Positions 20,228-50,640 of a DNA stretch of 64,000 bases are shown in pieces. This DNA is from Eledone cirrhosa. Its lineage: Eukaryota. The notes beneath the pieces are model-generated. The model ran no database searches and had not been told where the DNA came from. It saw only the letters and a program-made list of their open reading frames with translations. Numbering within the stretch: the stretch's first letter is position 1; every line of letters begins with the position of its first letter. The DNA is taken from assembly GCA_964016885.1 (NCBI GenBank), contig OZ024746.1, positions 57,288,001 to 57,352,000 on the forward strand, read 5' to 3'. The translations under genes were made by a program, and so were the position numbers.

Positions 20228-20554
20228 CGGACGAATGTGGCGAGAATGGCCTGTGTGAGCGGGCCTACTCTGACCATACACCTATAGGCTAGCTAACTTG
20301 AGGAAGAGAGGTGTGCTCTCACCGGGTGCCATATAAGCGCAGGGTGGTTCAGGATTGCTTGGGTACCTGCGTCACCCCTGGCTCGTCCACCCCCCTATTG
20401 GGGAATTTATCTTATATTTGTGCATAGTTTATTTTATATTTTTTATATTTTCATTGTTAAATTAGTCTTGCCATTGTGCACTTTTACTCGAGCTTATTGT
20501 ACACCCCCACTGTATTGTCCCCTACATGTCGGCCCTTGTGACCAATAAATGAAA
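20228..20554 (+). mobile_element. Heavily 5'-truncated Tx1-type 3' end (a third, diverged subfamily)
   Basis: Encodes the ORF2 C-terminus VARMACVSGPTLTIHL* (compare EARMARVNGPTLSIYL*). The 3'UTR ends CCCTTGTGACCAATAAATGAAA. Confidence 0.8.
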
Positions 20555-20562
20555 TCAGTATT

Positions 20563-21513
20563 CTGGAATGTCTTTAGGCGCTCACTGCCCTCGACCAGTC
20601 GGGCAATGTGATCGGTGGAAACTCCACCTTGGCGTTCTATGGAAGATTATTGGAGCGGAAGGGCGACGACGTACTTGGGGAGACTCTAGGCGTCGACGAA
20701 AATCAACTAACCAATCTCTTCCGAAGAACTTTGGGGCCGGGGCCTATGGACAACTTCCAGAAATTCCCTGGCCTGGCAGTGCTACCGAGAAGCTTTGCCA
20801 GTTCGGGATAAACTCTACAGGCATGGAGGTGCCGTAAGCCGGGCATGTCCGAGATGTGCTCATGGCGATGAAACCGTCCTGCACGCAATCGTCCAGTGTC
20901 CGAGCATTGCTGACTTGTGGGTTTATGTCAAACACCTGCTGTCGCGTGTAGGACGGATCCAGCTATCAGCTGAGTCCATCGTGAGGATTGCCCCGCCCTA
21001 TTCCTGTAGCCGGGAAAGGCAGGCAATTTGATATGTCTGGTGGCCATGGCGAAAGAGATAGTATGTTGGACACGTTTGAAAGGGCTGAAGATGGGCACTT
21101 ATCTCTTCGGTGATGCCCTGATTAACTTCTTCAAATTTCATTTGAAAAGGAAAATCATGGTAGAGAGGGAAGTGCTATCTTCCCAGCATTTTCTTGAAAG
21201 ATGGGGGAGAGAGGCAAGAATGGCCAGTGTGAATGGGCCTACTCTGAGTATGTGCCTGTAAATTAAAAGTGGAAAATTGGGAGAGGGCACTTACCCTGGT
21301 GGTCAGCGTCACCGTGGTTTTTTTAAGGCGCATTCTCCACGATGGCCCTAGGAAGTCTCCCGCCTATTGGAGAATTGTTCATAGTTAATTTGTTTGTTAC
21401 ATCCTCTGTTTTTGTGTTTAACACGCAGAAATGCCCATTTGTACCGCCCTGTATTGCGCTGTACTGTCCTTAATGTCTTACTTTGTGTAAACCCTTGTGG
21501 TTAATAAAGAAAA

Positions 21514-21514
<1 letters not shown>
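20563..21514 (+). mobile_element. 5'-truncated, degraded copy of Tx1-type family T2
   Basis: Collinear with ORF2 3' end and 3'UTR of 26545-27503, with frameshifts and stops. Ends AATAAAGAAAAC followed by (ATT)10. Confidence 0.9.
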
Positions 21515-21544
<30 letters not shown>

Positions 21545-21760
21545 GAATGCCATGGTTGACGGAGGCTCGGCTCTGTAAGGTATAGTAATTTTTAACCGTT
21601 AAAACAATTGTAAATTGTTTAAAACTTGAACCAAATTGTTGATAAAGACACCCTCCTCCTCGTGAGAGGGGTCTTTCTGTCCGTTATTTGGCCCTTCGGG
21701 GTTAAATAACCAGTTATTGGGGTTTTGTACCCAAAATTTCATTTTAAACAAAAAAACAAC

Positions 21761-23788
21761 ATGGCTACGAAAAAGAAATTTCAAACGTCACTCCCACTCA
21801 TTCCGTCTTCTTCTTCCTCAATCATCACTACAGCAGAGAGAAGATTGTCTCTCTCCCTCCCTTCTTTAAATGTGTCTCTCTCCCTCCCTTCTCTTTCGCA
21901 AGTGACGAAAGAAAAGAAAAGTCTCGTGCAAAGCGTGCAAGGTTTCTCCACGACGACGACGACGACAGCGACGAAACAGGTGTGCGGGAAATACGAAAAC
22001 CCAGTTCATTCGTCTGACGTCAGGAATAATAGCAGTAGCAGCCGTAATAACAACAGCAACAGTGACAATGAAAACAACAGTAGCAGTCGCAACAGCATCA
22101 CCAGCAGCATAAACAACAACAGCATTAGCAGCAGCAACACCAACAACAACCACAGCAACAGCGCCGGAGGCAGTAGTCGTAGTACCTGCGGCAACAACAA
22201 AAGTACCAGCAGCTCTGACGACAACAACAACAGCAGAGAAAAACCAATCTCATTTGCAGGGATTGCGAAAAACTTGGAAACAATCCTCATAACAAATGAG
22301 GAATTAGAGGAAGCGAAGAAGATGGTGACAAAGAATGGACACCGAGCAATCTGCAAGGCAGCGGAAAAATTTTTCGAAACCCAAGAGCACTGTACGGTCA
22401 CGTACCGTACAGTAAGTACAAAATCCCGTAGGGTGGAAAGAGCCACAGAGGCCCAAATACAAAAAGCCTTGGGGTCTGTGTGGCAGCGGAAAACGCACAT
22501 CACCCGAGGCAAAAAATATGCCACCGTAGACGTACTTTTTGCCACACCCCAGGAGGCAAAGGCCCAATCAGTAGTGACCCTAAGGAGCGAGGAAATGGTG
22601 TTGGTGCCCTCCTACTGGGGGCAAAAAATTGTGAGGGTCAAACTGACCCACGTCCCCCCCGGAATGACCCCTTCTTGGCTGGCCGCGTCTGTCCTCGTCG
22701 GAATCGAGGACAAAACAACTGTACTGCAAGTACAGAAAAAAGTAAGAGAAGATTGGGTCGGCTCCTCCATTGAGATGCTAATCCAAACCAACCAGGAGTG
22801 CATCGAAGCTATCCCGGATGTGATAGACTTCGATAACGGCACTCAACTGCCCATAAGTGTTGAGGGCAAACGCCCGAAATGCTTTCGCTGTGGATCGAAG
22901 ACTCACCTCAGGGCCTTCTGCAACGAGAAGACCCTGAGAAAGGAGAAAACCCCCCTCCTTCCGAATCAGGCTCCACGGCTACCAGCAGCAGCAGTGGAAA
23001 TACTAACAACAACAACAGCAATACCAAATGCAGCTGCAACAGAGACTCCAGTGCAAACATCACCAACAACAACAAGTGAAAGAGTGGAGCTGGTACCCCT
23101 CCCCGACCTCACAGAATCAGACATGGAGTGTGAGATGGGAGAGAGATGGCAAAAGGTCGTAAGAAGGCACAAACGCAGAAGCAGCGCATCGTCGCCTTTG
23201 AAAAGGGAGGAAAGAAATGAGAAAAGGGTAAAGTCTACTGCAAAGAGACCCACAGCAGCAACAACACCAACACCATCACCACCCACACTAGCACCACCAT
23301 CACCACCGGCGACAACCCCACCGCCAACAACACCTTCAACACCACCACCACAAGCACCAACATCGCAAACACAACAACAAAACACACACACCCAGCAACA
23401 ACGACAAGAAAATAGCAGAACCACACCCCACCCCCAGAAAAACAAGTGCACGGCAATAAATACACACAACAAGAAACTAATGACTTACATAATTGAACAC
23501 ACAGACATTTCACAACAGGACTACATAATACCAGCACCAATCAAAACGCCAACTAACATAAGACTGCAAAAAATAGCACAGAAACAATACACAAATATTA
23601 AAACGAAATTCCCCAACGCAGTTGGTGATTTCAGGGACCTAGGAGGAACCATCAATCGAAGAGTATACTCAGACATTCTCTTAGAAGAGCCGATGACCAG
23701 CCGAAGGGACGATTCAACGGTCCCTTCACCAGACGATCAAGTGAAAAGGGATGTAAAAACCATCCCTCCTCTACCAAAAGTACGGTAA
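21761..23788 (+). CDS. ORF1p of T2 copy C (open frame)
   Basis: ATG at 21761 (MATKKK...). Ser/Asn-rich N-terminus, CCHC knuckle CFRCGSKTHLRAFC, Pro/Thr-rich C-terminal part. Confidence 0.88.
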   Translation: MATKKKFQTSLPLIPSSSSSIITTAERRLSLSLPSLNVSLSLPSLSQVTKEKKSLVQSVQGFSTTTTTTATKQVCGKYENPVHSSDVRNNSSSSRNNNSNSDNENNSSSRNSITSSINNNSISSSNTNNNHSNSAGGSSRSTCGNNKSTSSSDDNNNSREKPISFAGIAKNLETILITNEELEEAKKMVTKNGHRAICKAAEKFFETQEHCTVTYRTVSTKSRRVERATEAQIQKALGSVWQRKTHITRGKKYATVDVLFATPQEAKAQSVVTLRSEEMVLVPSYWGQKIVRVKLTHVPPGMTPSWLAASVLVGIEDKTTVLQVQKKVREDWVGSSIEMLIQTNQECIEAIPDVIDFDNGTQLPISVEGKRPKCFRCGSKTHLRAFCNEKTLRKEKTPLLPNQAPRLPAAAVEILTTTTAIPNAAATETPVQTSPTTTSERVELVPLPDLTESDMECEMGERWQKVVRRHKRRSSASSPLKREERNEKRVKSTAKRPTAATTPTPSPPTLAPPSPPATTPPPTTPSTPPPQAPTSQTQQQNTHTQQQRQENSRTTPHPQKNKCTAINTHNKKLMTYIIEHTDISQQDYIIPAPIKTPTNIRLQKIAQKQYTNIKTKFPNAVGDFRDLGGTINRRVYSDILLEEPMTSRRDDSTVPSPDDQVKRDVKTIPPLPKVR

Positions 23789-23823
23789 GTGGTCTTTCCC
23801 ATCTTTTCCACTCTATTTTAAAC

Positions 23824-26800
23824 ATGACCTCACTCAGAATAGGCAGCATAAATGCGCGTGGCTTGGGGTCGTCATGGAAGCAGGGTCACCTGCTCAACGA
23901 CTTCAGGTCACTAAACATAGATGTAGTGGCCATCAGCGAGACCAGAATCTCCGAAGCACGGGCCTTGGCACCGATCTTCGGCGGCTACGATGTGTACGCA
24001 TCTCCCAGCCGTCCTGGATCCGGTGGAGGAGTTGCTGTGCTTTTTCGGAGAGGTTTGGATCTCGCCATACGGGCCATCTTTCTGGACCCAGAGGGTAAGC
24101 TGGTGGTGCTGGACGTGACCAGCGGAGACGGGCAAGCTTTCAGGCTAGTGGCCGTCTATGCCCCGACAGGAGCAGGGCGGCCTGATTTCTTCCGGCGTCT
24201 GGAGACCTTTCTTGGAACGTCCCGCTCTTTAGTGTTAGTGGGCGACTGGAACGGGATCTTAGATGCACGCTGGGACTGTGTGGGATTAGCGGATAGGGGT
24301 GGAGGGTGCAAGAGCCTCACCAACCTGCTCAGGCGTTTTGAACTGTCTGACAGGTACCGATTGGATTTCCCGAATGTGCCAATGTGGACTTGGACAAACC
24401 GGATAGGGTCATCCAGATCATATCTAGATAGAGTATTTTGTAGGGAAATAGATAGGTCTAGCATAGGCTGTCCACAATTCAAGATAGTCAGCTACACGGA
24501 CCACAAATTCGTGATCTGTGTGCTTGACTTAGATAGGCTTCATAGACGAGGACCCGGCTACTGGAAGCTAAACGCGTCCTTACCAGCGCGCAAGGCCTAC
24601 AGAGACCGGATTAGCGAACTAGTTAAGCGGGCGTTGACGGGGGCCATCGTCAACAACAAGTGGTGGTTTGCTCTGAAAAGAGCGATTAGAATAGAATCGA
24701 CTAGGTTTAGTAAGGCTTTAGCAATAGAGAAAAATAGAGCAGAGGGAGAACTAGTTAGAAAATTAGACGAGGGGCTTAGCAAAGGCATTGCGACCGACGT
24801 GCTTGCGGCGAAATTGGCCCTTGACCAATTCTTCAATGCAAAGCACGAAGGCTGCGTTGTCAGAGCAAGGGTGCGTGCTCTCAGGCACGAGGAGACGAAA
24901 GCCGTTCAATGGGCCCGAGTGGCGGAGGCGCGTCGTGGCAACAAAGCTACGATCCGGTCTTTGGTGGACCACGACGGGCGCATGCTACTCGATCCCGGGC
25001 AAATGTGTGAAGCTTTTCAGCGACACTTCGCTCAGCTGTTCGGGGGCAGCGGTGGGCCGGGTAGAGGGATGGACTTTAGTGTCTACCTCGACGGATTGCC
25101 GCGGCTCTCGGCCACTGAGGCGAAGTGTTGCGAAAAGCCGATAACAGCCGCTGATGTAAGGGAGGCAATGACTGGCTGCACAAGGGGTAAATCGCCTGGT
25201 TTGGATGGTCTGCCCTATGAACTTTACGTACAGATGCCAGACTTGTTCGGAGGCCTCTTGGCGGACGTCTACTGCAACTGGCAACAGAACGGGAGAATTC
25301 CCAGTTCTGTGAGCCGAGGAGCGGTGGCACTGCTGAGAAAGGATCCGAACAAGGGGGATAACATAGAAAATTTCCGGCCCATGACTCTGCTAAACACAGA
25401 GTTTAAGATTTTGGCCAAGGTGCTAGAAAAGAGGTTGGCGCTTGTCGTTGGTGGTCTGGTGGGAGAGGCGCAGACATGCGCCATTCCCGACAGATCCATC
25501 CACGACAACCTCCACCTCATGCGATACATCGTAGAGAGGGTAGCTAGGGAACCTGGCACGGGTGGGTCCTTGATCAATTTAGATCAGTCGAAAGCTTTCG
25601 ATAGGGTCGACCATCGTTACCTAGCGGCAGTCCTGAGGGCGGCTGGCTTTGGGCCCGTCTTCAGAGGCTGGATCGCTTCCATGCACAGCGACATCTGCTC
25701 TGTCGTGAGAGTGAACGGTCACCTGTCGGAACCGTTCAACATCATGCGCTCGGTCCGCCAAGGATGTCCCCTCTCGTCCCTCTTGTACGTATTGACTCTA
25801 GAGCCATTACTGCACAAACTGGAGACGTTGAGGGGCGTCCCGCGCGAACTAGGATGCGGAAGATTCGTGTCAGCATATGCGGACGATGTCATCGTAGTGG
25901 TGTCGAACGCCAAACACATCGAGGCGATCGGCACTACACTAAGAGAATACGAAGCGGTGACAGGAGCAATGATCAACCAGGAAAAGTCAGTGGGCCTGCA
26001 GCTCGGCACCTGGAGAGGCAGGTCCATGCCGTCCAACAGCGTCGTTGGACGCTGGACGGACGGACCGGTTAAATTGCTAGGGGTCTGGTTCGGTCCGGAC
26101 CTCCAGACGGACAAAAACTGGGACGAGGTGACGAGCAGGGTGGCTTCTCTCACCCAGAAATGGGCCGAGAGGAAGCTATCCCTGAAAGGTCGAGCGGAGG
26201 TGGCTAACGCGTACATCGCGTCTGTCATCTGCTACCGCCTGACCGTCGTACCTTGTCCTAAGCCTCGCCTGACTGCGCTGGAGTGTTTGCTCTTTCGCTT
26301 TTTGTGGAAGGGACGTGCTCCGATGGTCAGGCGGTCCATCTGTTGTCAACACCCGCTACGTGGAGGGCTGGGCATGCCGTGGCTGATGATGCGCAGGCAC
26401 GCGCTCAGGCTACGACATCTCTACCTCTTCCTCGACGGTGATCAGGTGTGGTCGCCGTTTGCTAGGCGCGTATTTCCCCAGCTCGTTTCCTTGACGGAGC
26501 TGCAGTCCTGGGTCAAGCGAAGACCGAGAGGGAGCGCCTGGAGACTGGAATGTCTTCAGGCGCTCACAGCCCTCGACCAATCGGGCAATGTGATCGGTGG
26601 AAGCTCCACCTAGGCGTTCTATAGAGGATTAGTGGAGGGTAAGAGCGACGACGTACTTGGGGAAACTCTAGGCGTCGACGAAAATCAACTAGCCAATCTC
26701 TTCGGAAGAACTTTCGGGCCGGGGCCTATGGACAACTTCCAGAAATCTCTGGCCTGGCAGTGCTACCGAGGAGCCTTGCCAGTTCGGGATAAACTCTACA

Positions 26801-27243
26801 GGCATGGAGGTGGCGTCAGCCGGGCATGTCCGAGATGCGCGCAGGGCGACGAAACCGTCCTGCACGCACTCGTCCAGTGTCCGAAAATTGCTGACTTGTG
26901 GGGTTATGTCGAACACCTGCTGTCGCGTTTAGGACGGATCCAGCTATCATCTGAGTCCATCGTGAGGATTGCCCCGCCCTCCTCCTTTAGCCGGGAAGGG
27001 CAGGCAGTTTTTAACTGTCTGGTGGCCATGGCGAAAGAGATAGTATGGTGGACACGTTTGAAAGGGCTGAAGACGAGCACTTACCTCTTCGGTGATGCTC
27101 TGATTGTCTTTTTCAAATTTCATTTGAAAAGGAAAATCAAAGTAGAGAGGGAAGTGCTCTCTTCCCAGCATTTTGTTGAAAGATGGGTGAGAGAAGCAAG
27201 AATGGCCCGAGTGAATGGGCCTACTCTGAGCATATATCTGTAA
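23824..27243 (+). pseudogene. ORF2 (APE-RT-zinc finger) of T2 copy C, interrupted by an in-frame TAG at 26611-26613
   Basis: 929 aa and 203 aa pieces in the same frame. The sister copy has TCG at this codon. The stop removes the C-terminal zinc finger. Confidence 0.92.
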
Positions 27244-27503
27244 ATTAAAGGTGGACAACTTAGGAGAGGGCACTTGCCTTGGTGGTCAGGGTCATTGTGG
27301 CTTTTTACTGGGCTTTCTCCACAAATGTCCCTCCGAAGTCTCCCCCCTATTGGGGAATTTTTCATTGTTATTTTCATTGTTATTTTTGTTACATCCTCTG
27401 TTTTTGTTTTTTACACGCAGAAATGCCCATTTGTACCGTCCTGCATTGTCCTGCACTGTCCTTAATGTCTACTTTATGTAAACCCTTGTGGTTAATAAAG
27501 AAA

Positions 27504-27535
<32 letters not shown>

Positions 27536-27749
27536 GAATGCCATGGTTGACGGAGGCTCGGCTCTGTAAGGTATAGTAATTTTTAACCGTTAAAACAATT
27601 GTAAATTGTTTAAAACTTGAACCAAATTGTTGATAAAGACACCCTCCTCCTCGTGAGAGGGGTCTTTCTGTCCGTTATTTGGCCCTTCGGGGTTAAATAA
27701 CCAGTTATTGGGGTTTTGTACCCAAAATTTCATTTTAAACAAAAAAAAC

Positions 27750-29841
27750 ATGGCTACGAAAAAGAAATTTCATACGTCACTCCCACTCATTCCGTCTTCT
27801 TCTTCCTCAATCATCACTACAGCAGAGAGAAGATTGTCTCTCTCCCTCCCTTCTTTAAATGTGTCTCTCTCCCTCCCTTCTCTTTCGCAAGCGACGAAAG
27901 AAAAGAAAAGTCTCGTGCAAAGCGTGCAAGGTTTCTCCACGACGACGACGACAGCGACGAAACAGGTGTGCGGGAAATACGAAAACCCAGTTCATTCGTC
28001 TGACGTCAGGAATAATAGCAGTAGCAGCCGTAATAACAACAGCAACAGTGACAATGAAAACAACAATAGCAGCCGCAACAGCATCATCAGCAGCATAAAC
28101 AACAACAGCATTAGCAGCAGCAACACCAACAACAACCACAGCAACAGCGGCGGAGGCAGTAGTCGTAGTACCTGCAGCAACAACAAAAGTACCAGCAGCT
28201 CTGACGACAACAACAACAGAAAAACCAATCTCATTTGCAGGTATTGCGAAAAACTTGGAAACAATCCTCATAACAAATGAGGAATTAGAGGAAGCGAAGA
28301 AGATGGTGACAAAGAACGGACACCGAGCAATCTGCAAGGCAGCGGAAAAATTTTTCGAAACCCAAGAGCACTGTACGGTCACGTACCGTACAGTAAGTAC
28401 AAAATCCCGTAGGGTGGAAAGAGCCACAGAGGCCCAAATACAAAAAGCCTTGGGGTCTGTGTGGCAGCGGAAAACGCACATCACCCGAGGCAAAAAATAT
28501 GCCACCGTAGACGTACTTTTTGCCACACCCCAGGAGGCAAAGGCCCAATCAGTAGTGACCCTAAGGAGCGAGGAAATGGTGTTGGTGCCCTCCTACTGTG
28601 GGCAAAAAATTGTGAGGGTCAAACTGTCCCACGTCCCCCCCGGAATGACCCCTTCTTGGCTGGCCGCGTCTGTCCTCGTCGGAATCGAGGACAAAACAAC
28701 TGTACTGCAAGTACAGAAAAAAGTAAGAGAAGATTGGGTCGGCTCCTCTATTGAGATGCTAATCCAAACCAACCAGGAGTGCATCGAAGCTATCCCGGAT
28801 GTGATAGACTTCGATAACGGCACTCAACTGCCCATAAGTGTTGAGGGCAAACGCCCGAAATGCTTTCGCTGTGGATCGAAGACTCACCTCAGGGCCTTCT
28901 GCAACGAGAAGACCCTGAGAAAGGAGAAAACCCCCCTCCTTCCGAATCCGGCTCCACGGCTACCAGCAACAGGACAAGCGGCAACCAGGAACGATAGGCC
29001 CGTGGCACCCATACCCACTCCACGGAAATCAAAAACAGCAGCAGCAGTGGAAATACTAACAACAACAACAGCAATACCAAATGCAGCTGCAACAGAGACT
29101 CCAGTGCAAACATCACCAACAACAACAAGTGAAAGAGTGGAGCTGGTACCCCTCCCCGACCTCACAGAATCAGACATGGAGTGTGAGGTGGGAGAGAGAT
29201 GGCAAAAGGTCGTAAGAAGGCACAAACGCAGAAGCAGCGCATCGTCGCCTTTGAAAAGGGAGGAAAGAAATGAGAAAAGGGTAAAGTCTACTGCAAAGAG
29301 ACCCACAGCAGCAACAACACCAACACCATCACCACCCACACTAGCGCCACCATCACCACCGGCGACAACCCCACCGCCAACAACACCTTCAACACCACCA
29401 CCACAATCACCAACATCGCAAACACAACAACAAAACACACACACCAAGCAACAACGACAAGAAAATAGCAGAACCACACCCCACCCCCAGAAAAACAAAT
29501 GCACGGCAATAAATACACACAACAAGAAACTAATGACTTACATAATTGAACACACAGACATTTCACAACAGGACTACATAATACCAGCACCAATCAAAAC
29601 GCCAACTAACATAAGACTGCTAAAAATAGCACAGAAACAATACACAAATATTAAAACGAAATTCCCCAACGCAGTTGGTGATTTCAGGGACCTAGGAGGA
29701 ACCATCAATCGAAGAGTATACTCAGACATTCTCTTAGAAGAGCCGACGACCAGCCGAAGGGACGATTCAACGGTCCCTTCACCAGACGATCAAGTGAAAA
29801 GGGGTGTAAAAACCATCCCTCCTCTACCAAAAGTACGGTAA
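27750..29841 (+). pseudogene. ORF1 of T2 copy D, frameshifted near 28218
   Basis: A 5-nt deletion (AGCAG) relative to copy C splits the ORF into 27750-28280 and 28255-29841. Confidence 0.88.
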
Positions 29842-29876
29842 GTGGTCTTTCCCATCTTTTCCACTCTATTTTAAAC

Positions 29877-32800: not shown

Positions 32801-33296
32801 TCTGGCCTGGCAGTGCTACCGAGGAGCCTTGCCAGTTCGGGATAAACTCTACAGGCATGGAGGTGCCGTCAGCCGGGCATGTCCGAGATGCGCGCAGGGC
32901 GACGAAACCGTCCTGCACGCACTCGTCCAGTGTCCGAAAATTGCTGACTTGTGGGTTTATGTCGAACACCTGCTGTCGCGTTTAGGACGGATCCGGCTAT
33001 CATCTGAGTCCATCGTGAGGATTGCCCCGCCCTCCTCCTCTAGCCGGGAAGGGCAGGCAGTTTTTATCTGCCTGGTGGCCATGGCGAAAGAGATAGTATG
33101 GTGGACACGTTTGAAAGGGCTGAAGACGAACACTTACCTCTTCGGTGATGCTCTGATTGACTTTTTCAAATTTCATTTGAAAAGGAAAATCAGAGTAGAG
33201 AGGGAAGTGCTCTCTTCCCAGCATTTTGTTGAAAGATGGGTGAGAGAAGCAAGTATGGCCCGAGTGAATGGGCCTACTCTGAGCATATATCTGTAA
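29877..33296 (+). CDS. ORF2p (APE-RT-zinc finger), 1139 aa, open frame
   Basis: INARGL, GDWN, YLDR, YTDH; LDQSKAFD, RQGCPLS, YADD; CPRC...HALVQC. Has KSPDLDG where the other copies have KSPGLDG. Confidence 0.95.
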   Translation: MTSLRIGSINARGLGSSWKQGHLLNDLRSLNIDVVAISETRISEARAFAPIFGGYDVYASPSRPGSGGGVAVLFRRGLDLAIRAIFLDPEGKLVVLDVTSGDGQAFRLVAVYAPTGAGRPDFFRRLETFLGTSRSLVLVGDWNGILDARWDCVGLADRGGGCKSLTNLLRRFELSDRYRLDFPNVPMWTWTNRIGSSRSYLDRVFCREIDRSSIGCPQFKIVSYTDHKFVICVLDLDRLHRRGPGYWKLNASLPARKAYRDRISELVKRALTGAIVNNKWWFALKRAIRIESIRFSKALAIEKNRAEGELVRKLDEALSKGIATDVLAAKLALDQFFNAKHEGCVVRARVRALRHEGTKAVQWARVAEARRGNKATIRSLVDHDGRMLLDPGQMCEAFQRHFAQLFGGSGGPGRGMDFSVYLDGLPRLSATESEFCEKPITAAEAREAMTGCTRGKSPDLDGLPYELYEQMPDLFGGLLADVYCNWQQNGRIPSSVSRGAVALLRKDPNKGDNIENFRPITLLNTEFKILAKVLAKRLALVVGGLVGEAQTCAIPDRSIHDNLHLMRYIVERVAREPGTGGSLINLDQSKAFDRVDHRYLAAVLRAAGFGPVFRGWIAAMHSDICSVVRVNGHLSEPFNIMRSVRQGCPLSSLLYVLTLEPLLHKLETLRGVPRELGCGRSVSAYADDVTVVVSNAKHIEAIGTTLREYEAVTGAMINQEKSVGLQLGTWRGRFMPSNSVVGRWTDGPVKLLGVWFGPDHQTDKNWDEVTSRVASLTQKWAERKLSPKGRAEVANAYIASVICYRLTVVPCPKPRLTVLERLLFRFLWKGRAPMVRRSICCQHPLRGGLGMPWLMMRRHALRLRHLHLFLDGDQVWSPFARRVFPQLVSLTELQSWVKRRPRGSAWRLECLQALTALDQSGNVIGGNSTSAFYRGLVEGKSDDVLGETLGVDENQLANLFGRTFGPGPMDNFQKSLAWQCYRGALPVRDKLYRHGGAVSRACPRCAQGDETVLHALVQCPKIADLWVYVEHLLSRLGRIRLSSESIVRIAPPSSSSREGQAVFICLVAMAKEIVWWTRLKGLKTNTYLFGDALIDFFKFHLKRKIRVEREVLSSQHFVERWVREASMARVNGPTLSIYL

Positions 33297-37927: not shown

Positions 37928-38019
37928 GTTAACTTTGCCTTTCATCCTTACGGGGTCGATAAAATAAAGTACCAGTAATGCACTGGATAATTGCTGGCCT
38001 TGTGCCAAAAGTAGAAACA
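37928..38019 (+). mobile_element. 5'-truncated SINE with a 16-bp target-site duplication, inserted at the 3' tip of the Dong-B element
   Basis: Matches the 3' half of SINE 18770-18955. ATTATTACAGTTGCAT is duplicated at 37912-37927 and 38020-38035. Confidence 0.85.
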
Positions 38020-38170
38020 ATTATTACAGTTGCATTTATCTTGCTTTATGTTCATACGAGTTATCACCAAGTCACAACCAGTGACCTCAAGAGACAACAA
38101 GGTCCGCCATGTTCAAGGAAGAACATACATACTCACACATGCATCTTTAGTGTTTAGACTTGTGATGTAC

Positions 38171-41100: not shown

Positions 41101-41822
41101 TAGGGAGGGTGTCTCGTTCCCCCATGTCAGATTCTTTCATTTTCATCCATTCGATCATAATTTCATCCTTCAAGTTGGCAAGTTCATTCTCATTCATTTC
41201 TTTATCATTTACGATCTCATTATTTTCATTTGGAGTTTCATCCTGAGCATGCACTCCCTCCACTTTTTTCGCTCCTTTCTTTAATTTGTTCTGTTGCCAG
41301 TGATTCCGCCCCGACCCTGGGATTCGAGGTGTTACAGTTTACCTCGTTTTCACTGACACATGCTTCATTTTCCCTTCGCTGTCTTTGTGCTACTAGCTTG
41401 ATCTGATCAATTTCTATATCAGTTAGTAACTTTTTTCTTACAATATTTCTTCGTATATTGGCTAGTTTGTTACTGTCAATATAGCCTCTGTTTTCGGGAT
41501 GTTTCTTTTTCCAGTTGATATATGTTTGTTCTGTATTCGATGTATTTGATGGGTAGTACATGGCAGTGTAGAAAGCCTCAAGGACTTCTTTATTATCTTC
41601 CCTTGACCATTTTTCTCTCTTTTTCTTTGGATTTCTTGGTGGTGAGCATGGAGGGCCAACAGTAGGAGTATTCCGGTTATGGGAGGTCTCCAGCTCCGAA
41701 GTGATGGGAAGGTTTGAACCATTAGCTGATTTTTCGACCCCAGTCTGGTTCCTCTCTGAGGGACGCGGCCCTTTTTTACCCGGGTGACGGCCGATCCGGT
41801 ATGAGATTTCATCATTAGACAT
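38171..41822 (-). CDS. Single-ORF protein: N-terminal Myb-like region, RT, CCHC and restriction-like (PD..D/E-K) endonuclease; one frameshift near 41240-41265
   Basis: KWSREDNKEVLEAF in 41238-41822. In 38171-41263: [46 protein letters not shown]...LID...K..KY. Confidence 0.9.
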
Positions 41823-41887
41823 CTACTTTATTTTGTCGCGTTTTATCCTTATCCGCCAAGGGGTAATCATTTCGTGTTACCACTTCT

Positions 41888-41976
41888 AGAACGAGTGTCA
41901 ACCAAGACTAGAGGGGTCGTTCTCCCCTAGAGACATGGCTATTCCCCGCCGGCCGCCATCCCGGTATTTCTTGGTC
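41888..41976 (-). ncRNA. Candidate HDV-like ribozyme / double pseudoknot at the 5' end of Dong-B
   Basis: P1 GACCAA/UUGGUU opening with a G-U wobble, P2 AGAAC/GUUCU, P3 GAC/GUC with a 7-nt loop, no P4. The catalytic core is non-canonical. Confidence 0.45.
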
Positions 41977-42061
41977 ACGGGGTTTTCTTTTTGTTGTTTT
42001 TTTTAAATTGTTATTATCATGAGTGGTTCCTTAATGTGAGCATTGCGTGGCTTAAGAATGA

Positions 42062-42118
42062 AATTATTAATAATTGTCTCCACTCCAGGCACAAGGCCAG
42101 CAATCACCCAGTGCATTA
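42062..42118 (-). mobile_element. SINE 3' fragment
   Basis: Reverse complement reads TAATGCACTGGGTGATTGCTGGCCTTGTGCC...ACAATTATT, matching the SINE tail. Confidence 0.7.
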
Positions 42119-42569
42119 CAATAATATAATAAACTTTTTGTTGTAGTTGGCTGTTATTGCTGCTGGCTATGTCGGTGGTGGTGCCGGATCTTTTTATATT
42201 GTTGGTGAGGAAGGGGTGAGCCAGCAGTCCCATAATTGTTGATGTAGACGTTTGTCCGTGGCAAGGTCACCAAGTCAATCTGTTTATATATTTTGCTAGC
42301 CTCTCTCTTGTCTAGTGCTACCGCCACCTTCCCTTTTGTCTCTCAAGTTAACAGGGGAATAGTGTCAGTAGTATTGAATGAGTGGTGGCGGCGATGATGG
42401 ATGTGGTGGGGTGGTGGCAGCGGTGGTGTTGTGGTTACTGATATAGTATCTATGAGTTTGTGTTCGTATGTTTAATATATATTTTCATTATATTTTGTGT
42501 TGACATATTCCCGTAAAATTTGAATTAAACATTTTTTAAAATTTGAGACAATAATAATAGTAATTATTA

Positions 42570-42795
42570 TTATGATGCCGGTGAAGTTGCCGTTATATTT
42601 AGTGTGATGGGATAGGTAGTGTATCAAGTTTCTGGTGTTGGTGAAATTGAAATTGCCGCTGTTCTATATAGTGTAGACAGAGGGTGTTTTGTTCCATTTA
42701 TAACCATTTTCTTTTTTTAAATACAAAATATATAATACAAAATTGAATATTTGAGCGATACAACAATATAATATGGATCCGAAACTTTATGGGAC

Positions 42796-42797
<2 letters not shown>
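42570..42797 (-). mobile_element. Diverged Dong family A 5'UTR segment
   Basis: Collinear with 47300-47556 (TATCxAGTTTCTGGTGTTGGTGA, CTATATAGTGTAGACAGAGG, TTGAATATTTGAGC). Confidence 0.75.
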
Positions 42798-42846
<49 letters not shown>

Positions 42847-42847
42847 G

Positions 42848-43089
42848 TTGTTATTCCTTGAATCTCAGTCATTGATGTTGGTTAACTGGAAAGTCCGTTG
42901 GATTGAATATCAAGCCACTACCTGCAGCCTCAGATATTCAGGACGTACAATACAAAGTTGAATATTTGAATATTTGAGCCTTATAACAATATATTTTGGG
43001 TCCGAATTTTTTTGGGCTCAAGCCGGGTGCTTTACGCAGCATTTGTACTAAGAGTTGTTATTTCACAAATGATTTAAATATGTTAAAAA
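42848..43089 (-). mobile_element. ~240 bp internally deleted Dong-A derivative (5' end fused to 3' end)
   Basis: 42944-43089 matches the A 5' end (47481-47625), and 42848-42946 matches the A 3' end. (TTA)n on both sides. Confidence 0.85.
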
Positions 43090-43113
43090 TTATTATTATT
43101 ATTATTATTATTA

Positions 43114-46100
43114 CCGTCACCGTTATTCCCTGAATCTCAGTCATTGATGTTGGTTAACTGGAAAGTCCGTTGGAATGAATATCAAGCCACTATCTGCAGC
43201 CTCAGATATTCAGGACGTATCGGAGGGTTCTTGCTGTTCCCAGCAAGCATGCCTTTTGAAGCGTTCCAAAAAGCGTGAAGGGGCCGATTTTCTTTAACCA
43301 TCCCTGGAAACTTTTGGAGATAGTCCCCAGTGCGCCTATGACAATCGGGATCACTTTGACTTCATGGCAGTTCCAAATCCTTTTCACCTCCCACTTTAGG
43401 TCCTGGTATCGGTTAATTTTCTCCCTCTCCTTCTCTTGCACTCTCGTGTCGAACGGGCAGGCCACATCCACAATCAGACACGATCTTTTTTCTTTGTCCA
43501 CAACCACCAGGTCAGGTCTATTGTGTTCCAGTTTTTTGTCCGTCTATATCCTAAAATCCCACAGCACCTTCACCTGATTGTTCTCCATCACCGCCTCTGG
43601 TCTATGCTCATACCATTTCTCAGAATGTGGTAAATTGTTTACTTTGCACAGGTGCCAGTGGATCACCCTGCCCATCACATCGTGTCTCCAGCCCTTATAG
43701 TGGGTCTGGGCTAGGTGTTTACACTCGGACACAATGTGAGCCACAGTCTCCTCTCTCTCTCCACAGATCCTGCACAGTGGGCTAGCCTCCTCCTTGTAAA
43801 TATGGTGCTTCAACCACTTCGTTTTGAGGGCCTGCTCCTGCGCAGCCATTAGCATTCCTTCTGTAGCCTTTTTGAGGTCTCCTCTTCTCAACCAGTTCCA
43901 TGTCTGTGGATCTCTAAATTCAGTTTTCTCAAAGAAGGTACTATGAAGGGATTTTCCCTTAAGGCTGCTCTTCCTCTTTGATGTTATTTCCTCCTTGGAC
44001 ATCCCCTGGCCTACTGTCCCCTCCTTCAGTACAGTTCTGAGCATTGGCTCCTTACTATAGGTCACGTATTTGTATAGGTTGTTTTTCTCCATCTGAACAC
44101 AGTCCTCTATGCTGATAAGACCTCTTCCACCCTCAGATCTCCTTAGGTAGAGTCTATCGACATCACTCCTCTTGTGGAACATGTTGTAGATAGTCAATAG
44201 CTTCCTAGTCTTCCTATCCATTTCTTTTTGTTCAGCAACATTCCATCTCAGAATTCCCGCACTGTACCTAATAATAGACACAGCTCGGGAATTTACTGCG
44301 CTTATGGCATTTCTGCTGTTCAGATGTGACTTCAATACGCTCCTTACTCTCCGAATGTATTCAGTTCTTAACAATTCCTTCATTTTTTTGTTCTTTATGC
44401 CATCAGCCTCCAGAACGCCCAAATACTTGTATCCTTCCTCAGAGTCAATTTCCTTTATCATCTCACCTGTTGGTATCTGGATTCCGTTACTTCTGCTCAA
44501 CCTACCCCTCCTCATCACAATGACTCCACATTTACCAATACCAAACTGCATACATATATCACTGCTGAAAATACGGACAGTGTGAACAAGCACATCCAAC
44601 TCCTTCTCACTTTCCCGAAGAGCTTAAGATCGTCCATGAAGAGGAGGTGATTGATGGTAAGCTCTCCCCTTCCCAACTTGTATCCTGCTCTCACTTTTCG
44701 CAGCATAATGGTCAAGGGCATCAGGGCAAGGACAAACAACAGAGGGGACAGGCTATCTCCCTGGAAGATACCTCTCTTGATCTTCACGCTCCCCAAGGAT
44801 ACTCCAGTTGACGTCAACTCTGTCTCCCAGGACCCCATACTCCTGCCTAGCAACTGTCTGATGTTATCTGCCACCCTGAAGATCTCCAGGCTTTTGGTGA
44901 TCCAAGAATGAGGCACCATGTCAAATGCCTTTCTGTAGTCTATCCATCCCATGGCAAGATCAGTGTGCCTCCTCCTGCAATTCCCCATTACCATCTTATC
45001 AATAAGTAACTGGTCCTTTGTACCCCGTGACTTCTTTCGGCATCCTTTCTGTTCTTCCGGTAACAAGTTGTTTGTGTGGAGGTGATGGTAGATTTCCTCA
45101 GACACAATGCTCGTCAACAGTTTCCACATTACGGACAGACATGTGATAGGTCTATAGTTGGTAACATCATTACCCTTGATTCGGTCTTTCTTTATCAGAA
45201 CTGTGGTACCTTTTGTCAACCACTCTGGCACCTCACCCGACACCAAGCAGTCATTGAACATGGCCGTCAGCTTCGGGTGGAGGGATGTTAAATGTTTGAT
45301 CCAATACCCTGCACACCATCTGGGCCTGGTGATTTCCAGTTGGTTAGTTTTTTTGGCCTGCCCCTTAAGAGTTTCAACTGTGATACTCAAATCAGTTTGT
45401 TGTTGTGCCTGCTCACCGATCTCCCTCTGTACTGTCTCAATCCACCCTGCCTGGACATTATGTCTAACATCCTGCTCCCATATTCCTCTCCAGAATGTTT
45501 TAGTTTGCTCCGCCCCAGGGATCAAGTCGTTGCCTCTTTCTTTCCCCTCAAGCTGTCCAAACAGCATCTTCTGGTTGTTGTCGAACATGCGGTTCTGTTT
45601 ATACTGACTGACTCTGTTCTCGTATCGCCTGATTTTTGCACTCTTTGCTACAATGCGTTGCTTCAGTTCCTATATGATAATATTTAGCTTTTTCCTCCTA
45701 GTTTTGTATTTTATTTCCAGTCTATTTTTAGTGCCTATGTTTTTTAGTGTCCCATTCAGTAGTGACTCAAGCTTTCCTATCATTTCTCATTTCCCCGATT
45801 TGCCCACTCAGTCGTTTCTTCCACCACGGCTCTGCTCTTTCTTGTCTGTTGTTTCCTCTCGCTTTTATACCAATTAGTTTCCTCACCGTATTTGCTGTTG
45901 CTTTGAGGATATTGTTGCACTGGTGAAGGCTCCTCGCCTCAAGGTATGGGATGACTTTGTTTACCTTAGCTGTTGTTTCTTTTAACTTTTTCCTGTCTAC
46001 AAATCTTAGGTTCATAGGTCTCCCACTATCATTGTTCAATTCATCTACCACTAAATTTAGGATGTCAACCGAATCTTGTCCTAGCCCGTCAGCATTCATC

Positions 46101-47625
46101 TCCTCAGTGGCCGTATCTCTGTTCCAGGTATTATTTATCTCAGTATTCAGATTATTGTCTGCTTCGGGTGGTTCCTCCGTTCTCAGGACCTCTTCACCTT
46201 CATTTCCCACTGGCTCGCTTGTCTGGCATACTACACCCGCCATCTCCAAGCCATTCTCTCTGCTCAGTTCCTCCAGTTCCAGCTCGCTTATCCACCCATT
46301 AGTTCTTATTACCCGAGCCTGCCCGGCCAATTTTTGTTCATCTAATTTAAATAAACCAATCTCGTTCCAGATGTTATGCATCCGTCTCCTGTAGCCCCTC
46401 TCCTTGGGGTTACTTTTCAGGTAACATTGCATAACAGTTCTATTCAATTATTTCGTCCAGTTGGTTCTGGCCCCTTTCCTTCTTCTCCTTCCTCCAACAT
46501 CGGCAGTATTTGGTTAACAGTCAGGTTCCTGCTGCTGAGCCAGGGGGCACCTGTTGGGTGAGAGTCTGTCACATGACGTTCTAGTCTCCATTTCACTGTT
46601 ATTCGAACTGTTTATGTTCGATATTTAAACACTCTTATCGAGGATTGGCGAATGTATGGTTACATAGCCATCTGTGGATCCGCCATTCCACTTGGCCCTT
46701 GTGTGGCATTATCACCACGCTGTATACGAACACACATAAACAAACAAACACACAGGCAGAAAGGGCCCCAAAAATGAATAAGCATAAGTTTCATTGTAAT
46801 GTAGTGTTCGAATGTCTGACTTAGTTTTTGTTTTTTAAGTTTTAGTTCCCCCCCCCCCCCCCCTCTTCTCTGTCCGTCCACCTGCTTCTCTCTTCATTCT
46901 TATTTTCTTTACGTTTTTTGGGTTTTTTTTTTTTGTTTTGGTTTTGGTTTTTCTCTGTTTGTTTTTTCTCGTTTTTTGCTGTTGTTGCTGTGCTGCTTTG
47001 GTTTTGTTGTTTGTTTTTTCTTTTTTCTTTTGAGTCTATCTATATATTTTGATGCCTTCCTCTTTTTTAGCAGTAGGGATTCTATAATGTGGTGGCAGCA
47101 GCCAGCAGGGAGATGTGGGGGACTGGCGGCTGTAGCGATACTGAGACAGTGGTGGTGTTGATGTCGATACCGAGGCAGTGGTGGCGGTGATGTGACCGTA
47201 TACTGTAGTGATGGTGCTGTAGCGGTGGTAGCAGTGAAGGAGTGAAGGGGTGGCGGCGGCGGCGATGAGATAATGGTGGTAATGATGGCCGTAGTGAGCG
47301 GTGGTGGTGAAAATGCCGTTATCTGGCTGTTGTGTTTAGTGTACACAGGTGATGGGGTGGGTGGTGTATCTAGTTTCTGGTGTTGGTGAGTTTGGCTGTT
47401 CTATATAGTGTAGACAGAGGAGAGGAGGGGGGTGGGGTTCTTCTTCCATTTATAGCCATTTTCGTTTTTGGATATACAGTGTACAATACAAAGTTGAATA
47501 TTTGAATATTTGAGCCTTATAACAATATATTTTGGGTCCGAATTTTTTTGGGCTCAAGCCGGGTGCTTTACGCAGCATTTGTACTAAGAGTTGTTATTTC
47601 ACAAATGATTTAAATATGTTAAAAA
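43114..47625 (-). mobile_element. Full-length R4/Dong-type element (family A) with several frameshifts
   Basis: ~1 kb 5'UTR. ORF pieces 46591 to 43202 contain [43 protein letters not shown] and an RLE tail (LIVDVACP...KINRY). Flanked by (TAA)n. Confidence 0.92.
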
Positions 47626-47649
47626 TTATTATTATTATTATTATTATTA

Positions 47650-49658
47650 CCGTCACCGTTATTCCCTGAATCTCAGTCATTGATGTTGGTTAACTGGAAA
47701 GTCCGTTGGAATGAATATCAAGCCACTATCTGCAGCCTCAGATATTCAGGACGTATCGGAGGGTTCTTGCTGTTCCCAGCAAGCATGCCTTTTGAAGCGT
47801 TCCAAAAAGCGTGAAGGGGCCGATTTTCTTTAACCATCCCTGGAAACTTTTGGAGATAGTCCCCAGTGCGCCTATGACAATCGGGATCACTTTGACTTCA
47901 TGGCAGTTCCAAATCCTTTTTACCTCCCACTTTAAATCCTGGTATCGGTTAATTTTCTCCCTCTCCTTCTCTTGCACTCTCGTGTCGAATGGGCAGGCCA
48001 CATCCACAATCAGACACGATCTTTTTTCTTTGTCCACAACCACCAGGTCAGGTCTATTGTGTTCCAGTTTCTTGTCCGTCCGTATCCTAAAATCCCACAG
48101 CACCTTCACTGATCGTTCTCCATCACCGCCTCTGGCTTATGCTCATACCATTTCTCAGAATGTGGTAAATTGTTTACTTTGCCCAGGTGCCAGTGGACCA
48201 CCCTGCCCATCACATCATGTATCCAGCTCTTATAGTGAGTCTGGGCTAGGTGTTTACACTAGGATACAATGTGAGCCACAGTCTCCTCTCTCTCTCTCCA
48301 CAGATCCTGCACAGTAGGCTAGCCTCCTCCTTGTAAATATGGTGTTTCAATCACTTCGTTTTGAGGGCCTCCTCCTGCGCAGCCATTAACATTCCTTCTG
48401 TAGCCTTTTTGAGGTCTCCTCTTTTCAACCAGTTCCATGTCTGTGGATCTCTAAATTCAGTTTTCTCAAAGAAGGTACTATGAAGGGATTTTTCCTGACG
48501 GCTGCTCTTTCTCCTTGGACATCTCCTGGTCTATTGTCCTATCCTTCAGTACAGTTCTAAGTATTGGCTCCTTACTATCAGTCACGTATTTGTGTAGGTT
48601 GTTTTTCTCCATCTGAACATAGTCCTCTATGCTGATAAGACCTCTTCGACCTTCAGATCTCCTTAAGTAGAGTTTATCGACATCACTCCTCTCGTGGAAC
48701 ATGTTGTAGATAGTCAATAGCTTCCTAGTATTCCTATCCATTTCTTTTTGTTCAGCAACATTCCATCTCAGAATTCCCGCATTGTACCTAATAATAGACA
48801 CAGCACAGGAATTTATTGCACTTATGGCATTCCTACTGTTCAGATGTGACTTTAATACGCTCCTTACTCTCCGAATGTATTCAGTTCTTATCAATTCCTT
48901 CATTTTTTTTATTCTTGATGTCATCAGCCTCCAGAACGCCCAAATACTTGTATCCTTCCTCAGAGTCAATTTCCTTTATCATCTCACCTGTTGTTATCTG
49001 GATTCCGTTACTTCTGCTCAACTTACCCCTCCTCATCACAATGACTCCACACTTACTAATACCAAATTGCATACATATATAATTGCTGAAAATACGGACA
49101 GTGTCAACAAGCACATCCAACTCCATCTCACTCTTCCCGAAGAGCTTAAGATCGTCCATGAAGAGGGGGTGATTGATGGTAAGCCCTCCCTTTCCCAACC
49201 TGTATCCTGCTCTCACTTTTCGCAGTACACTGGTCAGGGGCATCAGGGCAAGGACAAACAACAGAGGGGACAGACTATCTCCCTGGAAGATACCTCTCTT
49301 AATCTTCACGCTTCCCAAGGATTCTCCAGTTGATGTTAACTCTGTTTCCCAGGACTTCTTACTTTTGCCCAACAACTGCCTGATGTTATCTGCCACCTTG
49401 ACGATCGCTAGGCTTCTGGTGATCCAAAAATGTGGCACCATGTCAAATGCCTTTTTGTAGTCTATCCATCCCATGGCAAGACTAGTGTGTCTCCTCTTGC
49501 AATTCCTCATTACCATCTTATCAATAAGTAACTGGTCCTTTGTACCCCGTGACTTCTTTCGGCATCCTTTCTGTTCCTCCGGAACAAGTTGTTTGTGTGG
49601 AGGTGATGGTAGATTTCCTCAGACATAATGCTTGTCAACAGTTTCCACATTACGGACA
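47650..49658 (-). mobile_element. 5'-truncated Dong-A copy
   Basis: RT to RLE region ([21 protein letters not shown]). Truncated at 49658 against a (TAA)n tract. Confidence 0.9.
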
Positions 49659-49689
<31 letters not shown>

Positions 49690-49712
49690 TATTACTATTA
49701 TTATTATTACTA

Positions 49713-50640
49713 TCGTTTTCTTGAAGTCTCTGTCATCGAAGTTATTTAGCTGACATTTATGTTCAAATGTACATCAATCCACTACTGGCAGCCTCTGATA
49801 TTCAGGACATACCGAAGGGTTCTTGCTGTTCCCGGGAATCATGCCTTTTGGAGTGTTCCAAACTAGCGAGATAGTACCTAGTGCTCCTATGACAATCGGG
49901 AGCTTGATCTCCTCACTGTCCCAAATCATTTTTAATTCCCTTGGTTAATTTTCTCCTTCTCCTTTTCTTGCACACTTGTACCAAAGTCTACAATCAAGCA
50001 AGATATTCTTTCATTGGCAAAATCCAGCAGGCGAGGCTTATTGTGTGTTTCTTGTTTGTCATTTTGTATCCTCGAAGCGCACAACACCCTCAGCCGGCCG
50101 CTCTCTATCACAGACACTTGGTTATGCTTGTACCATCTCTCAGAATGGAGTAATTTTTGGTTTGTATGAATACAAGAGAACGACTTTTCATACGATGTCA
50201 TGCCTGCATCATTTATAGTGTGTTTGGGCTAGGTGTTTTCACTGGGATACGATATGAGCCACAGTTTCCCCTCTCTCCTTCAATATCTTACTATGCATGC
50301 TACCCTTCTCCTTATCAATATGATGTTTCTGAATTCTGTTTTTTTTTTCAAGAAGATGCCATGGAAGGCCTTTTTCATTCAGGCTGTTCTTCATCTTTGT
50401 TGTTACTTGTTTCTTTGACATCCAGTGGGCTATTGTCTTCTTCTTCAATACAGACTTAAACATTGGCTAATTTCTCTCAGGCATATATTTGTATAAACAG
50501 CTCTTCACAATCTGAACACAGTGCTCCACGCTGATAAAGCGTTTTCAGCTTCAGATCTATTTAAGTACAGTCTATTAAGATAATCCTTATTATGAAACAT
50601 ACTGTAGGTACTCATTAATTTGTTCTTGTTGTTGGAGTGA
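49713..50640 (-). mobile_element. Old, degraded Dong-A-like 3' fragment
   Basis: Residual similarity to the A 3' end (ETVAHIVS, HSERWYKH, GTARTLR-type tail and 3'UTR). Adjoins (TTA)n at 49659-49712. Confidence 0.75.

Follow-up and report, generated by a model that had tools for sequence, protein, structure and literature searches.

How do two unrelated classes of retrotransposon come to share a series of (TTA)n tracts, each class keeping to its own strand? The question is raised by an array in the 64,000-nucleotide stretch of Eledone cirrhosa DNA analyzed here (the window). A preliminary description had placed eight (TTA)n tracts among Tx1-type copies (APE endonuclease, here T) on the + strand and R4/Dong-type copies (restriction-like endonuclease, RLE, here D) on the - strand. 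All eight tracts are present, at 21515, 27506, 33546, 37901, 42799, 43089, 47625 and 49658, no more than one base from where they had been reported. Every one reads TTA on the + strand, and no TAA tract longer than 10 bases lies between them. The strand assignment also held, with APE-RT elements on + and RT-RLE elements on - (Table 1).

The SINE in the first row of Table 1 likely bounds the array on its left; toward the right edge, region 49944-52000 is matched by X1 contigs with 0-1 differences. In T2, ORF1 is open (21710-23788) and ORF2 (APE-RT-zinc finger) has one stop near 26611, while in T3 ORF1 is frameshifted and ORF2 is open (29682-33296). The right block contains at least two divergent R4/Dong-type families (~36-43% amino acid identity) and a SINE on the + strand. 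The RT-CCHC-RLE frame of D2 spans 1055 aa, with the N-terminal helical domain in a different frame.

Table 1. Features of the array (18770..50690), in window coordinates
Feature	Position	Strand	Basis
tRNA-type SINE, ATT tail decayed	18770..18959 (start approximate)	+	sequence; self-blast to 37928-38036; 3′ hairpin
D0, R4/Dong-like copy, decayed, 5′-truncated	19004..20227	-	tblastn with D2 protein, 28-33% identity, E 3e-8 to 2e-6
T0, 3′ fragment of older Tx1-type subfamily, then decayed tail (AGTATT)	20228..20556	+	
T1, Tx1-type copy, 5′-truncated; 90.7% identity to T2 and T3	20563..21514	+	
Tract (ATT)10	21515..21544	+	
T2, Tx1-type, full-length	21545..27505	+	
Tract (ATT)10	27506..27535	+	
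T3, Tx1-type, full-length; 98.6% identity to T2	27536..33545	+	
Tract (ATT)12, at tail-to-tail T/D junction	33546..33581	+	
D1, R4/Dong-type, full-length, ORF broken	33582..37900	-	
Tract (TTA)6	37901..37918	+	
SINE, 5′-truncated, at boundary of tract and D2; 15-bp direct repeat TTATTACAGTTGCAT on either side	37926..38020	+	sequence
D2, second R4/Dong-type family	38027..42798	-	
Tract (ATT)16	42799..42846	+	
"D3" and (ATT)8	42847..43113	-	
D4, R4/Dong-type, near-full-length, frameshifted; 89.8% identity to D1	43114..47624	-	
Tract (ATT)8	47625..47649	+	
D5, D1/D4-family copy, 5′-truncated, truncation point adjoins next tract	47650..49657	-	
Tract (ATT)n, interrupted	49658..49709	+	
D6, old R4/Dong-type copy, diverged (65-72%), 5′-truncated	49710..50690	-	

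Classification of the T and D elements

T ORF2 carries an N-terminal APE domain (Exo_endo_phos), RVT_1 and a C-terminal zf-RVT, and it is nearer to L1 than to R2 (E 2e-50 for L1 ORF2p vs. 1e-19 for R2). Members of the Tx1 clade have a separate ORF1 that carries a CCHC zinc knuckle. In T ORF1 a CxxCxxxxHxxxxC motif is visible; Pfam zf-CCHC gave no match in T and a sub-threshold match in a sister family (E 0.019), and no named Tx1 reference, by which the RT could be grouped with Tx1/Keno/Kibi/Koshi as opposed to the remaining L1 lineages, occurred among 46 homologues or their clusters.

The D elements have the R4/Dong layout, in which one ORF encodes RT, a CCHC finger and a C-terminal PD..D..K endonuclease, with no APE domain. 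These motifs occur in D2 and in 7/7 of the homologues shown, and the only PDB matches to the D protein are R2 proteins (E 6e-27). The R4/Dong clade is described as having a diverged N-terminal Myb/SANT domain without zinc fingers (PMC7998251, in excerpt). The model of the D N-terminal domain (pLDDT 87.5) consists of four helices with invariant W23 and W55. It resembles SANT/Myb folds weakly (ISWI SANT, Z 5.1, rmsd 3.0, 63 residues aligned; all Z < 8), matches R2 residues 147-215 weakly as well (Z 4.6), and returned no Foldseek match at E ≤ 0.001. An N-terminal C2H2 pattern is absent from 7/7 homologues, and among 120 listed of 545 homologues there was no named reference for placing the RT with R4/Dong/Rex6 as opposed to HERO or NeSL.

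Target preferences of the two element types

Flanks were sampled exclusively within the initial 135 Mb of contig C1, and some samples overlap. For D, 3′ ends adjoin TAA on their own sense strand in 29/30 D1/D4-family and 25/25 D2-family cases, and D2-family 3′ ends also adjoin ATT repeats in contigs from three of four runs, representing three organisms. Where D alignments end inside loci, 7/13 ends adjoin a tract; the other 6, judged by eye, are internal breaks or other insertions.

For T, 5′ ends were located genome-wide by exact patterns. TTATTATTATT directly precedes 1,519 of 1,591 full-length 5′ ends, against a background of ~4e-5. In stretches placed arbitrarily and totaling 200 kb, it occurs 17 times, both strands counted. 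The association of T with the repeat is far beyond chance, and T has a target-sequence preference. A tract lay upstream of all 30 T 5′ ends inspected, and full-length copies have the repeat on both sides. At the 3′ end, T runs directly into the repeat with no poly(A) tail in 30/30 cases. Specificity is not absolute, as some 4 of 30 T 3′ ends are located in other repeats or have no more of the tract than ATTA. No empty-site allele was observed.

The tracts could in principle be borne by the element itself: T would carry an (ATT)n 3′ tail, its full-length RNA would start in the upstream tract, and only Dong would target the repeat, piling into T tails. Such an origin would suit 5′-truncated T copies, which frequently lack a 5′ tract (a TTA tract stands at 5 of 15 listed alignment starts, or 5/13 when two internal deletions are set aside; one start adjoins TAA, and others adjoin (TTC)n or unique sequence). 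Tract length would also fit: downstream of T the median is 16 units against 9 upstream, and the downstream tract is the longer of the two in 29/41 cases. Plain duplication fails to explain this asymmetry, and tail extension or a bias in nick position is needed. However, the upstream tract varies from 1 to 21 units, and the neighbor upstream of 90 T 5′ ends was a D element in 38 cases, another T in 32, a SINE in 7 and something else in 13. Full-length T copies directly beyond D tracts or beyond the tails of other T copies mean that T must find existing tracts. The direct repeat flanking a SINE with the 3′ end of T, moreover, begins at genomic ATTAT. We therefore regard element-borne tracts as a very unlikely source of the pattern.

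T and D occupy the repeat in opposite orientations genome-wide

Among 218 junctions examined, 54 were unclassified, and 159 of the 164 classified tract neighbors obey the polarity seen at the locus. The earlier proposal, in which both classes converge on one triplet repeat from opposite strands and every insertion restores the target, is thus supported across the genome. We consider it very probable that the Tx1-type (APE) and R4/Dong-type (RLE) families occupy the same (TTA/TAA)n in opposite orientations genome-wide, likely because each nicks a different strand.

Array order is another matter. The two blocks had been described as non-interleaved, and within 20228..50640 they are; once D0, on the - strand to the left of the T block (~19004-20227), is counted, the order becomes D-T-T-T-T-D-D-D-D-D and the description fails. 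Arrays had also been expected to grow in a polarized way. Genome-wide, head-to-head junctions with D to the left of T (36/90 T 5′ ends) are about as common as tail-to-tail junctions with D to the right of T (26/73 T 3′ ends), and other arrays alternate, so segregation into blocks was rejected as a rule. The two non-interleaved blocks are a local accident.

These counts bear on the suggestion that the host has selected a piRNA-cluster-like trap, in which convergent blocks give antisense RNA. A piRNA cluster is expected to yield dense 24-31 nt RNAs that map uniquely and derive from long precursor transcripts. The clumped local order has P = 0.016 (two runs, 4 T and 5 D) or 0.048 (at most three runs, D0 included), and convergent junctions are indeed common, both of which would fit a trap; yet divergent junctions are equally so, and with thousands of copies orders with P ~0.02-0.05 are expected many times. 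All five clustered sites picked from hit lists on C1 proved to be mixed T/D arrays of similar size (~19-34 kb), several of them alternating. No strand bias beyond insertion polarity was found at the locus: junctions elsewhere follow the repeat strand in the proportion given above, with unbiased order, and because polarity follows the repeat strand, selection is unneeded. We judge a selected trap very improbable. Nor does the locus stand out, as the families in the array have 7,811, 4,042 and 3,341 exact 3′-end matches; the 30-kb pile-up is one among many.

Probable local recombination or repair at D3

The segment at 42847-43088, previously listed as a separate element, is not an independent insertion. 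Positions 42945-43395 differ from 47483-47930 at 1 position, compared with ~5% between the bodies, and the genome has the junction variant they share at two sites, both in this array. In D3, a 101-bp D 3′ end meets a locally derived copy of 47486-47649 across 3 bp of microhomology; repair or recombination likely produced this patch.

This patch lends some weight to an origin chiefly through unequal exchange or tandem duplication within the locus, or to a partial assembly artefact. So do the blocks found duplicated next to T copies at other sites, of 762 bp (with a further 1.5 kb of T 5′ end), 801 bp and 232 bp, and the fact that among the contigs of four runs none spans the array or resolves the D3 junction. 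Against this origin, divergence between copies is uneven (T2/T3, 1.4%; T1, 9%; D1/D4/D5, 5-10%; D6, ~30%), D2 belongs to another family, and a flank duplication with 100% identity was found at 1/60 T loci, among those with a locatable 3′ end. That the tracts at 21515 and 27506 are equally long was not accepted as proving duplication, given the 9% difference between T1 and T2. Local duplication as the main source of the array, or artefact as part of it, is accordingly a very slim prospect, and separate insertion into a shared repeat is retained as the preferred reading.

A sister family and an abundant SINE

A sister Tx1-type family, with 67% amino acid identity to T, lies in (TATC)n at 20/20 5′ ends. 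It has the 3′ hairpin of T and uses a different repeat, and repeat choice is therefore family-specific.

At least 154,174 copies exist of a SINE that has the 3′ hairpin of T and an ATTAT junction; of 30 SINEs, 26 have ATTAT at their end. The hairpin (4-bp stem, 5-nt loop) was assessed on 14 hand-picked rows, from which the structure itself was derived: 83.9% of cells are paired, 3/4 pairs have two-sided changes, and shuffles scored as high in 0/500 cases on three measures and in 96/500 and 105/500 on the other two. A common 3′ stem-loop and the same target junction, as in stringent SINE-LINE pairs, were both found. Because hairpin and junction are common to both, the SINE is likely mobilized by T-type proteins, judging from sequence. 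The notion that SINE tails seed new long tracts was rejected; by eye, about 3 of 30 SINEs have at least 3 repeat units, with tracts on both sides.

A proposed model for self-enlarging arrays

Target-primed reverse transcription is an established mechanism. On this basis the Tx1-type enzyme likely nicks and primes from the TAA strand and the Dong-type enzyme likely nicks and primes from the TTA strand. The T transcript may run past AATAAA and a few units into the downstream tract, allowing its (AUU)n end to pair with the nicked strand. T-type proteins probably duplicate ~15 bp of target, judged from the SINE. Each insertion would leave repeat on both sides, so that one tract would become two and an occupied site would offer more targets for T and D alike. 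Positive feedback would then enlarge the arrays, T and D joining in any order, and local recombination or repair may contribute some junctions, such as D3.

A broader scenario can be put forward tentatively, as possible but doubtful. One Tx1-type lineage with a fixed 3′ hairpin would switch microsatellite (ATT vs. TATC) through its endonuclease and an RNA tail copied from the target. It would also drive a SINE (>150,000 copies) whose ATTAT target is relaxed. With Dong acting on the opposite strand, the lineage would convert (TTA)n tracts into landing sites that both use and that enlarge themselves; there, the 5′ end of a new copy would sometimes be joined to a neighboring copy, duplicating up to 2 kb of array.

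T and D provide a naturally occurring pair of unrelated nucleases, one APE and one restriction-like, which appear to read a single 3-bp repeat from its two opposite strands. The APE sister pair (67% identical), with its differing targets, allows the setting and switching of retrotransposon target specificity to be studied directly. Without recourse to host selection, insertion mechanics would account for one type of transposon hotspot in the genome, and a candidate driver can likely be named for a very abundant SINE.

Comparison with known systems

Every ingredient has precedent, in Dong (TAA), Kibi/Koshi, SART/TRAS and Keno/Utopia. The combination seen here was not found in the literature searched; Repbase Reports and Kojima & Fujiwara 2004 may hold a target note for these families. 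SART and TRAS are related APE elements of the R1 clade and reside at telomeres, whereas T and D pair APE with RLE in a dispersed microsatellite. In Bombyx, SART and TRAS insert in opposite directions into (TTAGG)n telomeric repeats and nick opposite strands, so that, as excerpted in PMC7265360, they resemble T and D in placing two families in one simple repeat in opposite directions.

Dong elements of insects, molluscs and cnidarians have one RT-RLE ORF and lie in (TAA)n on the sense strand (PMC7998251 and PMC3812793, excerpts). D itself is no different in either respect; what differs here is that at least two divergent D families and an APE element occupy common tracts. Kibi, Koshi and crocodilian Tx1 elements are two-ORF APE-RT elements in (TC)n, (TTC)n and (TTCC)n/(TTTC)n, and in the excerpts of PMC4494074 no (ATT)n or (TATC)n target was found for them. 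T is like them in targeting a microsatellite, but it uses (ATT)n and its sister family (TATC)n; T differs, too, in running straight into the repeat without a poly(A) tail in the 30 3′ ends viewed. Movement of SINEU by Tx1-Mar proteins was inferred from a common target (part of PMC4494074), and SINE-LINE partners are marked by common 3′ hairpins with compensatory changes (part of PMC3747384); the SINE described here matches its Tx1-type family in 3′ hairpin as well as in ATTAT junction, and has >150,000 copies. Finally, the APE element Keno (Tx1) and the RLE element Utopia evolved the U2 snRNA gene as target in parallel. As portrayed in passages of PMC4640811, these two have identical 3′ flanks and the same orientation in a low-copy gene, whereas T and D insert in opposite orientations into a target that would multiply with each insertion.

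Elements and tracts in the window

Self-comparison, open reading frames and Pfam matches gave the element order in the window, which spans 57288001-57352000 of contig C6 in a 3.0 Gb genome whose repeat landscape resembles that of an octopus-like cephalopod, as SINE(+), D0(-, decayed), T0(+), T1(+), T2(+), T3(+), D1(-), SINE(+), D2(-), 'D3'(-), D4(-), D5(-) and D6(-), the SINE being of tRNA type. ORF2 of the T copies encodes APE, RT and zinc finger domains and has L1 ORF2p as its closest PDB protein, and the D proteins, with RT, CCHC and a PD..D..K motif, match only R2 proteins in PDB. The labels Tx1-type (T) and R4/Dong-type (D) are provisional and follow from this architecture and from the targets. 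All eight tracts reported in the preliminary description are present at the stated positions, each reading TTA on the + strand. Its division of the elements into two non-interleaved blocks, T on the left and D on the right, is broken by D0, which sits to the left of the T block. Close to their 5′ ends, the two D families (36-43% amino acid identity) have a segment of about 200 bp in common at 72% identity, and full-length D2 copies elsewhere carry a D1-like 5′ terminus, a possible exchange of 5′ modules.

Features of the window and related loci elsewhere in the genome
Feature	Location	Strand	Remarks or loci
Sister Tx1-type element	1165-6866	-	ORF1 and ORF2 frames open; (TATC)n flanks
(TGC)n/(CTA)n, then (AGT)n	15415-16101		About 690 bp, partly self-complementary
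SINE	~18770-18959	+	Elsewhere: L193-L222
D0	~19004-20227	-	D copy
SINE	37926-38020	+	Elsewhere: L193-L222
5′ region common to the D families	42604-42798; 47349-47552
'D3'	42847-43113	-
Sister-family 3′ end	54509-54541	+
Duplicated blocks beside a T copy	G000:C1:76,050,001-76,090,000		L112, L105-L107
Duplicated blocks beside a T copy	G000:C1:55,415,001-55,465,000		L100-L104
Duplicated blocks beside a T copy			L181; L170/L171
TTG-interrupted tract before four T copies	G000:C1:114,780,001-114,820,000		L108-L111
Second T subfamily			L134, L135, L141, L146, L147
T copies downstream of (TTC)n			L004, L008, L011, L152, L161, L176, L183, L192

'D3' had been listed as an element; it is more likely a patch left by repair or exchange. 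Two copies of a segment of about 450 bp, comprising a D 5′ end, an (ATT)8 tract and the D5 3′ end, differ from each other at a single position, against a divergence of about 5% between the bodies, and the join shows 3 bp of microhomology. This junction variant occurs at two places genome-wide, both of them these copies. Such an arrangement would be expected from templated repair, or from an unequal exchange with a later deletion, and could also stem from an assembly error.

Genome-wide targeting of (TTA)n

Exact patterns found at least 1,591 T 5′ ends, 7,811 T 3′ ends, and 4,042 and 3,341 3′ ends of the D1/D4 and D2 families. TTATTATTATT lies immediately upstream of 1,519 of the 1,591 T 5′ ends, against a background of 17 occurrences, both strands counted, in 200 kb sampled from arbitrary places on seven contigs. 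TAA on the sense strand adjoins D 3′ ends at 29/30 and 25/25 loci. At 218 junctions examined, 159 of 164 classifiable neighbours conform to the rule T+, SINE+, D- across the tract, the loci in these junction and flank samples being those matched first along contig C1, within its initial 135 Mb, some of them overlapping. The central proposal of the preliminary description, that T and D target one triplet repeat on opposite strands, thus holds and is general across the genome, and the junction-polarity check it suggested bears it out. That the tracts are instead carried by the elements themselves is improbable. Two samples count against strict targeting: among the truncated T starts listed, 5 of 15 have a tract (5 of 13 when two internal deletions are set aside), and some 4 in 30 T 3′ ends fall outside (TTA)n, retaining only ATTA or similar.

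Copies of another T subfamily, distinct in the 5′ region and diverged in ORF1 but with a similar ORF2, likewise come after (TTA)n tracts. Many T copies that have no element neighbour lie in (TTA)n downstream of a (TTC)n run.

In target-primed reverse transcription the first-nicked strand is the complement of the element's sense strand, so that the primer would be the TAA strand for T and the TTA strand for D. With repeat left on either side of every insertion, T and D alike would have twice as many targets. The T 3′ terminus (hairpin-AATAAA-GAAANC) is followed directly by ATT, with no poly(A) in 30/30, and the T RNA may carry at its end a few AUU units of target origin that would pair with the primer. 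Tracts are longer downstream of T than upstream (median 16 versus 9 units), a possible sign of tail extension or of a bias in nicking.

Order within arrays

The left neighbours of 90 full-length T 5′ ends were D- (36), D+ (2), T (32), SINE (7) and other sequence (13). To the right of 73 T 3′ ends we found D- (26), T+ (14), T- (1), SINE (3) and other sequence (29), a count that omits 17 of 60 fetched T copies lacking a 3′ end at full length. All five clustered sites picked from the match lists were mixed arrays of about 19-34 kb, with orders that include D-T-T-D, T-D-T-D-T-T-T and D-D-T-D-T. If order were random, the arrangement seen in the window would have P = 0.016-0.048, which is unremarkable given thousands of copies. 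Since D- flanks T on both sides and arrays elsewhere are mixed, block segregation is not a property of the system; the polarised T and D arrays proposed earlier are unsupported, and nothing sets this locus apart from the many others of its kind. The suggestion of a piRNA-like trap is likewise unsupported and very improbable. Any antisense read-through would concern thousands of junctions, not those of the window alone.

Duplicated blocks lie beside T copies at several loci. One measures 762 bp, with 1 mismatch, and is accompanied by 1.5 kb of T 5′ end without mismatches; others measure 801 bp (0 mismatches) and 232 bp (100%), and at a further locus a distinctive tract of about 55 bp is duplicated. 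Another T 5′ end comes after every one of them. They may reflect 5′ joining to a downstream neighbour, yielding very long target duplications. Where a TTG-interrupted tract recurs before four T copies, three of the four are identical across the first kb and different further in. That the array in the window grew mainly by duplication, or reflects misassembly, is, in our estimate, highly unlikely.

The sister family and the SINE

ORF2 of the sister Tx1-type element is 67% identical to that of T. The family has 311 exact 5′ ends, with (TATC)n upstream in 20/20 inspected. The SINE has at least 154,174 copies, judged from exact 3′-end matches, and ends in ATTAT at 26 of 30 loci. Direct repeats of 13-21 bp starting at or near ATTAT occur at 11/30 loci, 11-bp matches at 9/30 and none at 10/30, pointing to a nick offset of roughly 15 bp. 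A 3′ hairpin (loop CTTGT) is common to the SINE, T and the sister family, and 3 of its 4 pairs show two-sided changes; the control is lenient, as the 14 rows were hand-picked and the structure was read from the same rows. Judged from these sequences, the SINE is likely moved by T-type proteins.

Comparison with known systems

Dong has (TAA)n as its target (PMC7998251, PMC3812793), as the D elements do here; the review PMC3812793 classes Dong with the APE elements, a placement at odds with PMC7998251. Targets described for Tx1 families are (TC)n, (TTC)n and (TTCC)n/(TTTC)n (PMC4494074). Two cephalopod repeat surveys (PMC13282606, PMC8967140) report abundance or recent activity for L1-Tx1 and Dong-R4, with hotspots in one, and contain no target analysis in the portions consulted; the excerpt of PMC4758252 names no Tx1 partner for an octopus SINE. 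An (ATT)n-targeting Tx1 family with tracts common to Dong did not appear in the literature searched, Repbase Reports aside. SART and TRAS insert into (TTAGG)n in opposite directions (PMC7265360), and Keno and Utopia converge on a single U2 site (PMC4640811).
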